This document shows positions 7,640 through 61,163 of a DNA stretch of 64,000 nucleotides, piece by piece. The stretch comes from Escherichia phage ZCEC14. The first letter of the stretch is position 1. The number at the start of each line of letters is the position of its first letter. Made by a program: the position numbers and the translations under genes. The notes under the pieces are model-generated. The model was given only the letters and a program-made list of their open reading frames with translations. It searched no databases and had not been told where the DNA came from. The stretch lies in sequence record OP168898.1; one strand, given 5' to 3'.

Positions 7640-7669
7640 GTTTACAAGCATAAAGCTTTATGGTACTAT
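7640..7669 (+). promoter_or_regulatory. early sigma70-type promoter
   Basis: -35 GTTTAC 7640-7645, 18-bp spacer, TGgTACTAT -10 at 7664-7669. Confidence 0.7.
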
Positions 7670-7704: not shown

Positions 7705-7854
7705 ATGAAAACTACGTTAATTGAAGTAAAAAAGTTGATTGACACAGAAGAGATTTCAGCTTGTTTTGAAAATTTCTTAGAAGATGCAACTGAAGATAAC
7801 GCAGTTTATCTCGCTCAGAAAATTATAGAAACATATTTGGAGCAGAATCAATGA
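7705..7854 (+). CDS. small hypothetical protein
   Basis: 49 aa from ATG with leader ggatttgggggaataaaATG; track start 7660 lies in promoter. Confidence 0.4.
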   Translation: MKTTLIEVKKLIDTEEISACFENFLEDATEDNAVYLAQKIIETYLEQNQ

Positions 7855-8114
7855 CAGTTTACGTAGATGTTTTAATGAATCATGGATGGAAACTTCGCGG
7901 TCATCCAACTAAAAATTGTCATATGTTCACTGATGGAGATATTGAAGAGCTTCATGAAATGGCAGAAGCAATAGGAATGAAACGCTCTTGGTTTCAAGAT
8001 AAACGCATTAAACATTATGACTTACACGCGCGCCGCCGCCAAAAAGCCGTAGAACTTGGAGCTGTAGAAGTATCTCGTCGCGAAGCAGTAAAAATTTGGC
8101 GAACATTAAAATAA
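7851..8114 (+). CDS. hypothetical protein
   Basis: 87-aa ORF, ATGA overlap with upstream stop; His/Asp-rich (HPTKNCHMFTD...HYDLH). Confidence 0.5.
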   Translation: MTVYVDVLMNHGWKLRGHPTKNCHMFTDGDIEELHEMAEAIGMKRSWFQDKRIKHYDLHARRRQKAVELGAVEVSRREAVKIWRTLK

Positions 8115-8117
8115 ATT

Positions 8118-8147
8118 GTTTACAGTAGGGTAGTAGTGTGATACTAT
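8118..8147 (+). promoter_or_regulatory. early sigma70-type promoter inside stem-loop
   Basis: -35 GTTTAC, 18-bp spacer, TACTAT -10; flanking inverted repeat agggta/taccct. Confidence 0.65.
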
Positions 8148-9558: not shown

Positions 9559-9588
9559 GTTTACAAGACTGTTCCTCTGTGGTACTAT
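9559..9588 (+). promoter_or_regulatory. early sigma70-type promoter with SD-complementary spacer
   Basis: -35 GTTTAC 9559-9564, -10 TACTAT 9583-9588; spacer ctgttcctc (9569-9577) complementary to gaggaacag (9605-9613) at the SD. Confidence 0.7.
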
Positions 9589-9616
9589 ACAACTATCAAC
9601 TACGGAGGAACAGAAA

Positions 9617-10144
9617 ATGAACGCTAAAGATATTTTCAACTTGGTAAATTACAACGATGGCAAATTTAAATCTGAAGCGCAAAGCAAGTTCTTTAACGAC
9701 ATCTCAATCGGAGGTGAAATCACTGTTGATGGAGGACAAATTTACAAATCCCGTTGGAATTGGATCGTTATTATTGATGAGATCGGTATTGTAGAAATTT
9801 ACAAGAATACGAATAAAAATCGTACATTACACTGGTCTCGTGATACTAACGAACAGTACAAAAAGGATAAAGCATCTAAAATGTCTCGTGTAACTCAAGA
9901 AGATATTGAGTTCATCAAGAAAGATATTTTAATGTATGATAACTTAATTGCTGAAGAGCAAGCTGTTATTGATAAATTTGACGAGATTAAAGCTTCTCGT
10001 GAAATTCCTGATTTTATGAAAGAATCAGTAAATGAACGATACTCTCTCATTTCAGAGCGTATTGAAACTTACAAAAAGCAAAGAGCTGAACGCCAAAATA
10101 CTCTTCGGAAGTTTGAAGAACGGTTAAAGACGGTACTCGCATAA
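9617..10144 (+). CDS. hypothetical protein
   Basis: 175-aa ORF directly downstream of promoter/leader cassette. Confidence 0.55.
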   Translation: MNAKDIFNLVNYNDGKFKSEAQSKFFNDISIGGEITVDGGQIYKSRWNWIVIIDEIGIVEIYKNTNKNRTLHWSRDTNEQYKKDKASKMSRVTQEDIEFIKKDILMYDNLIAEEQAVIDKFDEIKASREIPDFMKESVNERYSLISERIETYKKQRAERQNTLRKFEERLKTVLA

Positions 10145-26498: not shown

Positions 26499-28177
26499 AG
26501 AATTTTAAACTAAACCGAGTTAGGTATCAAAATATAATGTCAGTAGGTGGAAATCCTATTGACATTCAATTAGATAAGGTTCAAAAAACTCTTATTACTG
26601 GACGAAATGGTGGTGGTAAGTCTACTATGTTAGAAGCCATCACATTTGGGCTTTTTGGCAAGCCATTCCGTGATGTAAAGAAAGGCCAATTAATAAACAG
26701 CACAAATAAGAAAGAGCTTTTAGTTGAACTGTGGATGGAATATGATGAGAAAAAGTACTATATCAAAAGAGGACAAAAACCAAATGTTTTCGAAATCACC
26801 GTTAACGGTACACGTCTTAATGAATCTGCCAGCAGTAAAGATTTCCAAGCAGAATTTGAACAGCTTATCGGAATGTCATACGCCAGTTTCAAACAGATCG
26901 TCGTACTCGGCACGGCTGGATATACCCCTTTCATGGGCCTATCCACTCCTGCAAGAAGAAAACTCGTCGAAGACCTGCTCGAGGTAGGAACATTAGCTGA
27001 AATGGATAAGCTTAATAAAGCACTAATACGTGAATTAAATTCACAAAACCAAGTGCTTGATGTTAAAAAAGATAGTATTATCCAACAAATTAAAATATAT
27101 AATGATAACGTTGAACGCCAGAAAAAATTAACTGGCGACAACCTTACTCGTCTGCAAAATATGTATGATGATTTGGCAAAAGAAGCTAGAACGCTAAAAT
27201 CGGAAATAGAAGAAGCTAATGAAAGATTAGTTAATATTGTTTTAGATGAAGACCCGACTGATGCATTTAATAAAATTGGTCAAGAAGCAGTTTTAATTAA
27301 ATCAAAAATTGACTCATATAATAAAGTCATTAATATGTATCACGAAGGTGGATTATGTCCAACCTGCTTGTCACAATTAAGTTCCGGTGATAAAGTTGTT
27401 TCTAAAATTAAAGATAAAGTTTCTGAATGCACGCATTCGTTTGAACAGCTTTCAACACATCGTGATAATTTAAAAGTTCTTGTTGATGAATACCGAGATA
27501 ATATTAAAACCCAGCAGACGTTGGCGAATGATATTCGCAATAAAAAGCAATCCTTAATCACGACGGTAGATAAAGCTAAAAAGGTTAAAGCGGCTATAGA
27601 AAAAGCATCATCCGAGTTTATTGACCATGCTGATGAAATAGCACTGCTTCAAGAAGAACTTGATAAAATTGTTAAGACGAAAACTAATTTAGTAATGGAA
27701 AAATACCACAGAGGAATTTTGACTGACATGCTCAAAGATTCTGGTATTAAAGGTGCTATTATTAAAAAGTACATTCCATTATTTAATAAGCAGATTAACC
27801 ATTATCTTAAAATAATGGAAGCGGATTATGTGTTTACATTAGATGAAGAATTTAATGAGACAATTAAATCCCGTGGTCGCGAAGATTTTAGTTATGCTTC
27901 ATTTAGTGAAGGTGAAAAAGCACGAATTGATATTGCTCTTTTATTTACTTGGCGTGATATTGCTTCTATCGTATCTGGTGTTAGTATTAGTACATTAATT
28001 CTTGATGAAGTATTTGATGGGTCATTTGATGCCGAAGGTATTAAAGGCGTAGCTAATATTATAAATTCAATGAAAAATACTAATGTTTTTATAATTTCGC
28101 ATAAAGACCATGACCCGCAAGAATATGGTCAGCATCTTCAAATGAAGAAAGTCGGTCGATTTACTGTAATGGTTTAA
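26495..28177 (+). CDS. 46: recombination endonuclease subunit gp46 (Rad50-like ATPase)
   Basis: 560 aa; Walker A GRNGGGKST, zinc-hook CPTC, Walker B LILDEVFD; GTG start. Confidence 0.9.
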   Translation: MKNFKLNRVRYQNIMSVGGNPIDIQLDKVQKTLITGRNGGGKSTMLEAITFGLFGKPFRDVKKGQLINSTNKKELLVELWMEYDEKKYYIKRGQKPNVFEITVNGTRLNESASSKDFQAEFEQLIGMSYASFKQIVVLGTAGYTPFMGLSTPARRKLVEDLLEVGTLAEMDKLNKALIRELNSQNQVLDVKKDSIIQQIKIYNDNVERQKKLTGDNLTRLQNMYDDLAKEARTLKSEIEEANERLVNIVLDEDPTDAFNKIGQEAVLIKSKIDSYNKVINMYHEGGLCPTCLSQLSSGDKVVSKIKDKVSECTHSFEQLSTHRDNLKVLVDEYRDNIKTQQTLANDIRNKKQSLITTVDKAKKVKAAIEKASSEFIDHADEIALLQEELDKIVKTKTNLVMEKYHRGILTDMLKDSGIKGAIIKKYIPLFNKQINHYLKIMEADYVFTLDEEFNETIKSRGREDFSYASFSEGEKARIDIALLFTWRDIASIVSGVSISTLILDEVFDGSFDAEGIKGVANIINSMKNTNVFIISHKDHDPQEYGQHLQMKKVGRFTVMV

Positions 28178-34400: not shown

Positions 34401-34430
34401 GTTTACATCCCTGTTCTTCCATGGTACTAT
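34401..34430 (+). promoter_or_regulatory. early sigma70-type promoter with SD-complementary spacer
   Basis: -35 GTTTAC 34401-34406, -10 TACTAT 34425-34430; spacer ctgttcttcc pairs with ggaggaacac (34446-34455). Confidence 0.7.
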
Positions 34431-34458
34431 ACAACTATCAACTACGGAGGAACACAAA

Positions 34459-34710
34459 ATGAAAAACATTCAAACTAATTTTATTCAAAATTTAAAAGTT
34501 GTTAATGCAGAAAAAGCTAATAAATTCTTTAAAGTTAAAGAATTCGAAAATGAAGGTAATACTTATGGTATTATAGAACAAAATGGAATGGTGACTGGAT
34601 TAGAAATTTATAATGGCAAAGGAAAATTTCAGTCACAGCCAATTTCTGTTATGGGTGTAAGAAAAGGAATTAAAACTGAAGATGCTTTAAAATTATTTGT
34701 TAAGTTTTAA
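34459..34710 (+). CDS. hypothetical protein
   Basis: 84 aa from ATG after promoter/leader cassette; track start 34276 is an alternative-codon extension across the terminator. Confidence 0.5.
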   Translation: MKNIQTNFIQNLKVVNAEKANKFFKVKEFENEGNTYGIIEQNGMVTGLEIYNGKGKFQSQPISVMGVRKGIKTEDALKLFVKF

Positions 34711-51061: not shown

Positions 51062-51091
51062 GTTTACTTCCTCGGTTAGTTGTGGTATTAT
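51062..51091 (+). promoter_or_regulatory. early sigma70-type promoter
   Basis: -35 GTTTAC 51062-51067, 18-bp spacer, TGgTATTAT -10 at 51086-51091. Confidence 0.7.
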
Positions 51092-51118
51092 AACACCATA
51101 GCTACTGAGGATAATAAA

Positions 51119-51619
51119 ATGAAAATTTATCGTGTTGAATCATCGTTTAGTATTCTTGATTATGAAGATGCTATAACAATACGTCGAAATCTTTGTGTTC
51201 AAATAACGCCGTACAGGAGTATAATAGATTCATGGAGCGAAGAGTGGCTATTACACGTAGGTTATGACAGACCTAATTTTATGCATCATAGCGATAATAA
51301 TAAAAGAATTCCTTTACCACACGAAGATAAACTATTAGTTAAAAACGCTAATATAGTAATTAATACTAAGTTCAAGAAAGATTATGTTGGAGTAGAATAT
51401 CATATTCCAGGATGGTTTATAGCTCTTTATCATTTTGCTTTCGCTAGCGAATATGATATGATGAGATGGTTCACACGAGAAGAGCGGGAAGAATTATCTT
51501 CTAAAGGATTTTATCTCGCTGTATACGAAGTTCCTGAAGATGAAGTTATCATTGGTGGGCACCAAGTAATGTTCCGCAAATCGCATGCTGAACTCGTAGA
51601 TTTTATTGAAATGAGATAA
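51119..51619 (+). CDS. hypothetical protein (motB position)
   Basis: 166 aa from in-frame ATG; first ORF after dexA as motB is in T4; identity not verified. Confidence 0.5.
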   Translation: MKIYRVESSFSILDYEDAITIRRNLCVQITPYRSIIDSWSEEWLLHVGYDRPNFMHHSDNNKRIPLPHEDKLLVKNANIVINTKFKKDYVGVEYHIPGWFIALYHFAFASEYDMMRWFTREEREELSSKGFYLAVYEVPEDEVIIGGHQVMFRKSHAELVDFIEMR

Positions 51620-60503: not shown

Positions 60504-60533
60504 GTTTACATACCACAAGGACCGTGGTACTAT
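60504..60533 (+). promoter_or_regulatory. early sigma70-type promoter
   Basis: -35 GTTTAC 60504-60509, 18-bp spacer with ccac/gtgg repeat, TGgTACTAT -10 at 60528-60533. Confidence 0.7.
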
Positions 60534-60991: not shown

Positions 60992-61021
60992 GTTTACAAG
61001 ACTGTTCCTCTGTGGTATTAT
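60992..61021 (+). promoter_or_regulatory. early sigma70-type promoter with SD-complementary spacer
   Basis: -35 GTTTAC 60992-60997, -10 TATTAT 61016-61021; spacer ctgttcctc (61002-61010) complementary to gaggaacag (61038-61046). Confidence 0.7.
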
Positions 61022-61049
61022 TACCCTATCAACTACGGAGGAACAGAAA

Positions 61050-61163
61050 ATGAAAAAGATTATTAAAGCTATATGGAATGTAGTTATAATACTAGTAGTT
61101 TTGAGTATATTCCCAATCGTTTTAATGATTGATGTATTAAACGTTTACTTTGGATTTATGTGA
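61050..61163 (+). CDS. hydrophobic micro-protein (37 aa)
   Basis: ATG after promoter/leader cassette; single predicted TM helix. Confidence 0.35.
   Translation: MKKIIKAIWNVVIILVVLSIFPIVLMIDVLNVYFGFM

Follow-up and report, generated by a model that had tools for sequence, protein, structure and literature searches.

A promoter spacer complementary to the Shine-Dalgarno region in repeated early cassettes of a T4-like phage: a putative promoter-dependent translational switch

Three near-identical cassettes of about 60 bp, dispersed over the genome of Escherichia phage ZCEC14, join an early promoter to a translation start so that the promoter spacer is complementary to the Shine-Dalgarno (SD) region of the gene that follows. 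They were studied in a stretch of 64,000 nucleotides of this phage (record OP168898.1), which is called the window hereafter, and lie on its + strand at 9559-9619 (copy 1), 34401-34461 (copy 2) and 60992-61052 (copy 3). It seems probable that the cassettes act as a promoter-dependent translational switch: an RNA that reads through from an upstream promoter would hide the SD, and an RNA that starts at the cassette's own promoter would expose it. From the sequences, their geometry, the predicted folds, the enrichment of the arrangement among early promoters and its covariation across lineages, we infer the formation of the hairpin in vivo, its block of translation and the use that such a block would have. 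The window belongs to a T4-like genome (Tequatrovirus), as many genomes of this genus match a 3-kb region around copy 1 with 97-98% identity, and its + strand corresponds to the early-gene (minus) strand of T4.

The repetition itself, which had been proposed in an initial annotation of the window, is well defined. The 20-mer CTATCAACTACGGAGGAACA occurs at exactly three sites (9593, 34435 and 61026), where none is expected from 100 shuffles with three mismatches allowed; a chance repeat was considered and rejected. Similarly, the promoter pattern GTTTAC-N4-CTGTTCNTC-N2-TGGTAYTAT matches the same three sites only. Counted by eye over an alignment of 61 positions, copy 1 differs from copy 3 at five positions and from copy 2 at seven. 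The likeness begins at the -35 hexamer, upstream of which the sequences are only A/T-rich, and ends a few bases beyond the ATG; the repeat unit is therefore exactly a promoter and its leader. All three copies read GTTTAC-N18-TA(C/T)TAT with TGG before the -10 hexamer and fit the T4 early-promoter (sigma-70) consensus in each of its elements (-35 GTTTAC, spacing of about 17-18 nucleotides, extended -10 TGn and TAnnnT). Each copy has an A/T-rich, UP-like tract upstream of the -35, lies on the early-gene strand and is directly followed by an open reading frame (ORF) that starts 58 nucleotides past the first base of the -35. In phage SA20RB, the site orthologous to copy 1 is annotated as a T4-type early promoter. 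This annotation and the consensus fit bear out the initial description of the copies as promoter-leader cassettes; the sites are in fact already known as T4 early promoters and as elements of the PeSL type (repeated units of early promoter, stem-loop, SD and ATG), which that description had not recognised. About 14 T4-type early promoters are found on the + strand of the window and, as several of them have the core TGGTACTATACAACTATCAACT in common, the copies resemble each other partly through a family consensus. The spacer and the SD leader are both common to the three copies only.

Copy 1 constitutes the early promoter and leader of the nrdC.8 homologue, with its -35 (GTTTAC) at 9559-9564, its -10 (TACTAT) at 9583-9588 and the ATG at 9617. 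It begins 2 bp past the stop codon of the nrdC.9 homologue, with nrdC.8 directly downstream, and is orthologous to the T4 site 5' of nrdC.8. Its 5' arm, CTGTTCCTCTGTGGT (9569-9583), covers spacer and extended -10 and reaches the first base of the -10 hexamer, and its 3' arm, ACTACGGAGGAACAG (9599-9613), includes the SD GGAGG at 9604-9608. Copy 3 has its 5' arm at 61002-61016, its 3' arm at 61032-61046 and its ATG at 61050. It drives the ndd.4 homologue, a membrane peptide of 37 amino acids in the ndd-denB cluster of tiny membrane-protein ORFs. Copy 2 is an imm.1-type early promoter joined to the leader GGAGGAACA (5' arm 34411-34425, 3' arm 34441-34455). It is preceded by gene 43 and the intrinsic terminator of this gene, about 85 bp upstream, and is followed by an extra ORF of 83 amino acids (34459-34710, + strand) and then by imm.1 and imm.

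Folding of the RNA gives copies 1 and 3 a 15-bp stem (CUGUUCCUCUGUGGU / ACUACGGAGGAACAG) with two G-U pairs. The loop of 15 nucleotides contains the -10 hexamer and the likely start site, and the hairpin alone has a predicted free energy of -22.1 kcal/mol. In copy 2, an internal A-C mismatch and the loss of the terminal pair leave a stem of 13 pairs with a free energy of -13.9 kcal/mol. The complement of the SD region that had been noticed in the spacer is thus present, but its size, given as 9-10 nucleotides, had been understated. Compared with dinucleotide shuffles, read-through RNAs of 101 nucleotides have z values of -5.9, -3.3 and -3.8 for copies 1, 2 and 3, and RNAs that begin in the loop are essentially devoid of structure. 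In the same order, the SD is predicted to be unpaired with a probability of 0.00, 0.11 and 0.00 in the read-through RNA and 0.60, 0.75 and 0.81 in the own-promoter RNA. The same scoring applied to the read-through RNAs of validated T4 hairpins gives 0.03 for gene 49, 0.30 for e and 0.40 for I-TevI; the predicted occlusion of the SD in the copies is at least as strong as in these three genes. The last base of the 5' arm is the first base of the -10 hexamer and, therefore, a sigma-70 start about 7 nucleotides past the -10 excludes the arm from the transcript. Both parts of the initial claim, an SD buried by a hairpin in read-through RNA only and an own transcript that starts after the 5' arm, agree with the predicted folds and with this geometry, respectively.

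In that case, the cassette would be a self-contained T4 early expression unit (UP-like A/T tract, GTTTAC, extended -10, leader, SD and ATG) in which the promoter spacer doubles as an anti-SD. A polymerase coming from an upstream promoter would copy both arms, and the nascent RNA would close a stem of 13-15 pairs that holds the SD and blocks the 30S subunit; as no U-run lies behind the stem, transcription would go on. Initiation at the cassette's own promoter, about 7 nucleotides past the -10 and within the loop, would produce an RNA with the 3' arm only, whose leader measures about 22 nucleotides and whose SD is open. The gene would then be translated essentially from its own early promoter alone, which would insulate its output from upstream transcription and confine its synthesis to the immediate-early burst, before the early promoters are shut off.

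The prediction supposes that transcripts do cross the cassettes. A terminator scan found no terminator-like site between the nrdC.10 early promoter (8118-8147, + strand) and copy 1 at 9559, nor between an early promoter located about 490 nucleotides upstream of copy 3 (60504-60533, + strand) and that copy. These two promoters are therefore the likely sources of read-through for copies 1 and 3, respectively, and on the sequence evidence read-through across both copies is plausible. The stem itself was considered as an intrinsic terminator and rejected: it is followed by AAAAUG instead of a U-run and is not called by the scan. This bears on a different explanation, quite unlikely in our opinion, according to which the stem-loop is a PeSL-type attenuator or RNA-end element that stops or pauses upstream transcription or protects the 3' end of the processed upstream mRNA, its overlap with the SD being incidental. 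The PeSL stem-loops of RB49 and phi1 overlap promoters and one of them was a strong terminator in a reporter assay (PMC2839356); moreover, some RB49 cassettes have GGGAG...CTCCC stems, at least one of which is directly followed by a T-run. Nevertheless, the T4-type stems lack the U-run and the scan is negative, so that, as far as can be judged from sequence, the PeSL property of a stem-loop acting as terminator or attenuator does not extend to them. Besides, their 3' arm includes the SD across unrelated arm sequences, a specificity that an attenuator would not need.

The position of the upstream stop codons is relevant to another possibility, namely a translational-coupling gate: the SD would be closed unless the base of the stem is melted by a ribosome that terminates on the upstream ORF, whose stop codon is just before the -35, and read-through RNA would be translated in step with that ORF instead of being silenced. 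In many cassettes the upstream stop codon does lie 2-8 nucleotides before GTTTAC, the 5' arms that start right after the -35 could be within reach of a terminating ribosome, and their first pairs involve the anti-SD bases. A terminating ribosome covers roughly 8-10 nucleotides past the stop codon. In the window, the distance from the upstream stop codon to the 5' arm is 12 nucleotides for copy 1 and 17 for copy 3, so the terminating ribosome should leave the stem closed. More generally, the 5' arms of the window begin 12-17 nucleotides past the stop or behind a long intergenic gap, beyond the reach of the ribosome, and their stems, with 13-15 pairs and -14 to -22 kcal/mol, would for the most part not open. 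Coupling thus appears unlikely.

The pairing is also found at promoters outside this repeat. A set of 107 IMG/VR loci with T4-type promoters (about 960 kb) was scanned for a GTTTAC promoter followed by an SD and an ATG, which yielded 203 unique cassettes; 127 of them served as representatives with less than 80% identity. In 16/127 cassettes, compared to 3.8 with shuffled spacers, the spacer-SD duplex has -10 kcal/mol or less, and in 9/127, compared to 0.2, it has -14 kcal/mol or less. When the spacers were permuted among the cassettes, the mean at the stricter threshold was 0.9 and the maximum 4 in 300 permutations. The complement is also specific in its position, as the 16 cases within the spacer at -10 kcal/mol or less compare with two in an equal length upstream of the -35, none in the transcribed leader (0/63) and none at the coding start. 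The strong cases use unrelated arm pairs (TTCTCCAGTAGTTG/CAACTACTGGAGAA, ATCTCCATTAG/CTAATGGAGAT, TTCTCCTCATG/CATGAGGAGAA, TTCCTCCAAG/CTTGGAGGAA and others). In the complete T4 genome minus the late-gene block at 100-119 kb, 8 of the 30 early cassettes have a spacer-SD complement (motB.2, mrh.2, nrdC.8, regB, denV, e.8, 30.8 and ndd.4), where 1.25 are expected and none of 1000 shuffles reaches eight. Within the window, four of the 16 early cassettes qualify (0.92 expected, P=0.009). An independent example in the window is the motB.2 early promoter (51062-51121, + strand), whose spacer TTCCTCGGTTAG (51068-51079) pairs with CTACTGAGGA (51102-51111) at -12.3 kcal/mol; the arms TTCTCCTCATG/CATGAGGAGAA belong to a diverged cassette whose gene has the same first nine residues as motB.2. 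RB49, the original PeSL phage, has TTGACA-type promoters, and spacer-SD pairing was found in none of nine cassettes of its first 50 kb; on this small sample, the original PeSL phages do not share the feature.

Orthologues of regB, denV and nrdC.8 in diverged phages were collected by protein homology, blind to structure, which avoids a choice by pairing. In T4 (AF158101), the regB (62740) and denV (65355) early promoters have spacers complementary to their own SD, and these covary in diverged phages. The spacer-SD stem of regB is kept in all three lineages (99, 77 and 68% amino acid identity), with the inner arms CTTGACTG/CAGTTAAG, CTAGTTG/CAACTAG and TGTAAG/CTTACA, respectively; individual folds were used in this case, as RNAalifold gave poor pair counts on MAFFT alignments that placed the arms in different registers. 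For denV, 36 distinct upstream regions were compared (58-98% amino acid identity). In 25 of them the promoter region forms a duplex of -10 kcal/mol or less with the SD/AUG region, 18 score better than at least 99% of their shuffles, and the arm pairs are of many different kinds. Two geometries occur, the 5' arm lying either right behind the -35 hexamer or across the -10/+1 region; in both, the 5' arm would be wholly or mostly missing from the own-promoter RNA. At seven denV loci with the second geometry, the 5' arm covers the -10 hexamer and the first transcribed bases and the 3' arm is placed after the SD and before the AUG, as in the pairs TAGTAGTCT/AGACTACTA and ATGTCCTCCTA/TAGGAGGACAT. The nrdC.8 orthologue of the Dhakavirus-related vB_EcoM_005 has the arms ATCTCCAGTAG/CTACTGGAGGT. 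The promoter scan, as distinct from the protein searches, retrieved a diverged gene whose product begins with MKKLLKAIW (MKKIIKAIW in ndd.4) behind the pair ATCTCCATTAG/CTAATGGAGAT. The motB.2 orthologues were too alike to be informative. As far as sequence comparison goes, the recurrence of the arms with other sequences and their covariation across lineages argue for selection on the pairing.

The three copies of the window cannot be counted separately in this argument. They are related by descent or gene conversion and amount to one evolutionary instance of the pairing, of which T4 has the full cassette at nrdC.8 (with a 13-bp stem) and at ndd.4. Among nine distinct T4-type cassettes, the window copies included, three stem pairs are variable, alternating only from C-G to U-G or from G-C to G-U, and pairing is sometimes lost at the ends of the stem. 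Of the varying interior cells, 8/9 show one of these two changes; such pairs hold in sense-strand RNA only, which fits an RNA structure of the sense strand. By duplex energy, the sense pairing of this family is more stable than the antisense pairing by 7-8 kcal/mol, a comparison that is informative for the T4-type family only, since over the top cassettes it is biased by their ranking on the sense strand. Together, the wobble-only changes and this difference lend weak support to an RNA structure. They also concern the idea that the inverted repeat is a signal at the DNA level, a hairpin or cruciform targeted by recombination proteins that move the ORF cassettes. The cassettes do lie at indel junctions and undergo gene conversion, and a protein targeting the stem-loop was speculated on by the authors of the PeSL work (PMC2839356). 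Yet, the 15 pairs include two or three G-U pairs, hence mismatches in DNA and in the antisense strand, and the sense RNA has the more stable pairing; homology alone accounts for the exchanges, and the arms differ between lineages and offer no common site to a protein. This makes a DNA signal very improbable. The shared ancestry of the three copies and the lack of double compensatory changes could also suggest that the complementarity has no function, having arisen once by chance and then been copied with the cassette. Nevertheless, independent arm pairs at orthologous promoters of several lineages and the strong, position-specific enrichment make an arrangement without function hardly credible. 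All four of these explanations fit the data less well than the promoter-dependent switch.

Several observations weigh against the switch or restrict its scope. The feature is found in about 12-27% of early promoters and is, hence, no general requirement. About five of the 15 stem pairs (GUGGU/ACUAC) derive from consensus promoter and leader motifs, and none of the pairs shows a double compensatory change among the nine T4-type cassettes. A formal pair count over six cassettes of class II found 5/14 compensatory pairs, a score that 0/500 shuffles reach, but these sequences were picked for their pairing, so that the count is partly circular and is illustrative only. The pairing to UUGGAGAA is weaker at the T4 imm.1 and e.8 promoters (-7.3 and -10.0 kcal/mol). 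As for nrdC.8, the orthologue of JS98, a Dhakavirus by the annotation of its close relative IME08, has the arms of vB_EcoM_005 with one mismatch, and one further lineage has a different local hairpin. Copy 2 lies behind the gene 43 terminator, so its read-through is limited and needs leakage of this terminator. Finally, the depletion of upstream terminators at masked cassettes is a trend only (1/16 compared to 21/107, P=0.30).

Besides their putative role in expression, the cassettes are sites of exchange. Identical cassette variants are common to the nrdC.8 and ndd.4 loci across genomes, which indicates gene conversion. The T4 imm.1 promoter has the 5' arm and the core of copy 2 with a different leader. 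In the window phage, T2, RB27, RB51 and others, the 83-amino-acid ORF and the GGAGGAACA leader are found between the imm.1-type promoter and imm.1, and the insertion junction relative to T4 lies inside the cassette, right after CTATCAACTAC; the copy 2 region with this ORF is covered by 30/534 records. The prediction that the dispersed copies are substrates for recombination is sustained by the shared variants and by this junction. Two properties of PeSL elements are found here, that is, a repeated early promoter with stem-loop, SD and ATG, and insertion, deletion or exchange of ORFs between close relatives. Apart from the proposed switch, the cassettes, being dispersed and near-identical, serve as portable homology in gene conversion and in the insertion or deletion of ORFs by PeSL-type shuffling. 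Exchanges mediated by such cassettes, including that of ndd.4/.5 between T4 and PST, are described in the PeSL papers (PMC4122927, Fig. 6A), and the role of the cassettes as PeSL-type recombination modules is already known.

The 5' arm CTGTTCTTCC is also found with unrelated leaders ending in TTGGAGAAT, at 27013 (imm.1) and 70623 (e.8) of T4 AF158101 and at seven IMG/VR loci, so that spacer and leader modules reassort at the shared core; a bulged 9-bp helix of -7 to -10 kcal/mol is still possible between CTGTTCTTCC and the TTGGAGAAT leaders. The 83-amino-acid ORF (phrog_18567, no Pfam match) is present between gene 43 and imm.1 in about 30 Tequatroviruses and absent from T4. It had no relatives in IMG/VR; relatives were found in the GenBank phage set, where a homologue that is 53% identical occurs in seven Dhakavirus-type records (IME08, dhabil and others) with its own early promoter, the IME08 locus being between rI.-1 and mobD.3. 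The ORF behaves as a movable promoter-plus-ORF module. Two small ORFs of the window (7705-7854 and 7851-8114), absent from T4, are enclosed by two other cassettes, at 7640 and 8118; T4 has a single cassette with a 7640-type spacer directly before nrdC.10. The difference resembles an insertion or deletion of the PeSL type between cassettes.

Other early promoters of the window (7640, 8118, 12536, 52158, 56227 and 60504) and many IMG/VR loci carry different inverted repeats. The spacer pairs with the -10/+1 region at 8118 (TAGGGTA/TACCCTA) and 52158 (GGGACC/GGTCCC), and covarying versions of this pairing are found at other loci (AGGGCTAT/ATAGCCCT, GGTCTAT/ATAGACC). Some early promoters have palindromes within the spacer (CCACAAGGATGTGG; AAGCATAAAGCTT). 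Both the spacer/-10/+1 repeats and the palindromes resemble classes of PeSL stem-loops. An Rfam scan of the whole window gave no match at the gathering score. The comparison of copy 3 with T4 also concerns the annotation of the latter. The T4 ndd.4 gene (AF158101, 166636-166764) corresponds to window positions 61032-61052, and the ATG annotated as its start, at 166764, owes its existence to a C-to-T change within the 3' arm that is specific to T4 (ACTATGG in T4, ACTACGG in the other phages seen). The conserved ATG, which has a GGAGG SD, is located at 166749, 15 nucleotides further downstream, and the annotated start is probably five codons too long.

The same design may extend to a subset of T-even early genes, about a quarter of those of T4 and including regB, denV, nrdC.8 and ndd.4, which would be organized as self-insulating cassettes with the spacer or the -10/+1 region as anti-SD and would each be translated from the gene's own immediate-early promoter only, being silent on read-through and later transcripts. 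This generalization is held more tentatively than the switch itself, at a little under even chances. If it is correct, a layer of early-gene control has gone unrecognised in T4, the reference system for phage gene regulation, and about a quarter of its early promoters hold a translational switch that is undescribed in the T4 reviews and the PeSL papers. It would help to explain how a RegB-type protein can be synthesized in a short burst despite ongoing transcription through its gene, how dense early ORFs avoid summing the expression from every upstream promoter and how accessory ORFs are shuttled by cassettes without disturbed expression, since these ORFs would be portable and expressed independently of their landing site. 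The switch would also act jointly with the nuclease RegB, able to cut only the short transcripts with an open SD. Synthetic biology could also make use of the cassette, which would provide promoter-specific translation within a compact unit of about 60 bp.

Links with RegB are suggested by previous work. The GGAG of nrdC.8 is moderately cleaved by RegB in vivo and RegB requires a single-stranded GGAG (Durand et al. 2006; PMC1702504), in keeping with the presence of transcripts whose SD is open. The SD of regB is itself a RegB target (PMC1702504, PMC3014915). RegB targeting and the masked cassettes share the same SD motifs and the same early genes, and the regB promoter has the spacer-SD design. 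In contrast, RegB is a trans-acting nuclease and the hairpin a cis element that would hide the GGAG in long transcripts. We infer a possible interplay of both, in which the hairpin may set which regB transcripts are translatable and cleavable.

The initial annotation held that promoter-dependent translation is known for some T4 genes, and the literature agrees (e, 49 and I-TevI; PMC3014915, PMC2988022). SD-sequestering hairpins with an internal promoter have been reported for e, soc, 49, I-TevI to I-TevIII, segB and the mobE gene of Aeh1; the promoters specified inside these hairpins are late ones, and neither of the two reviews of 2010 gives an early-promoter case (PMC3014915, PMC2988022). 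In the full-text literature searched, no description of SD masking by early promoters was found, an older description being possible. Like these T4 genes, whose SD or AUG is sequestered, the cassettes have an SD within a stable predicted helix in upstream-initiated RNA only, own transcripts that by geometry lack the 5' strand, and predicted stems of comparable stability. The T4 cases have a late promoter (TATAAATA) and serve to delay expression, whereas the cassettes, which contain no TATAAATA and hence no late (gp55) promoter, have a sigma-70 early promoter with the spacer as anti-SD, and the effect would be restriction to the earliest phase or insulation. Unlike the late-promoter hairpins, they are also repeated and mobile. 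In these last respects they resemble the PeSL elements (Arbiol 2010, PMC2839356; Comeau 2014, PMC4122927), which are repeats of about 50-70 bp with an A/T tract, an early promoter, a stem-loop, an SD and an ATG, are concentrated where small accessory ORFs lie and bring about the gain, loss and exchange of ORFs. Five positions have been described for the PeSL stem-loop, namely upstream of the -35, over the -35, within the spacer, over the -10 and just before +1 (PMC2839356, PMC4122927), and that of T4/PST was placed upstream of the promoter (PMC4122927). These stem-loops were read as terminators or attenuators, one of them having been tested, and none was described as a pairing of spacer and SD, which is what distinguishes the cassettes studied here. 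The early-promoter version is thus a variant of two known kinds of element, the T4 control by promoters within hairpins and the PeSL cassettes.

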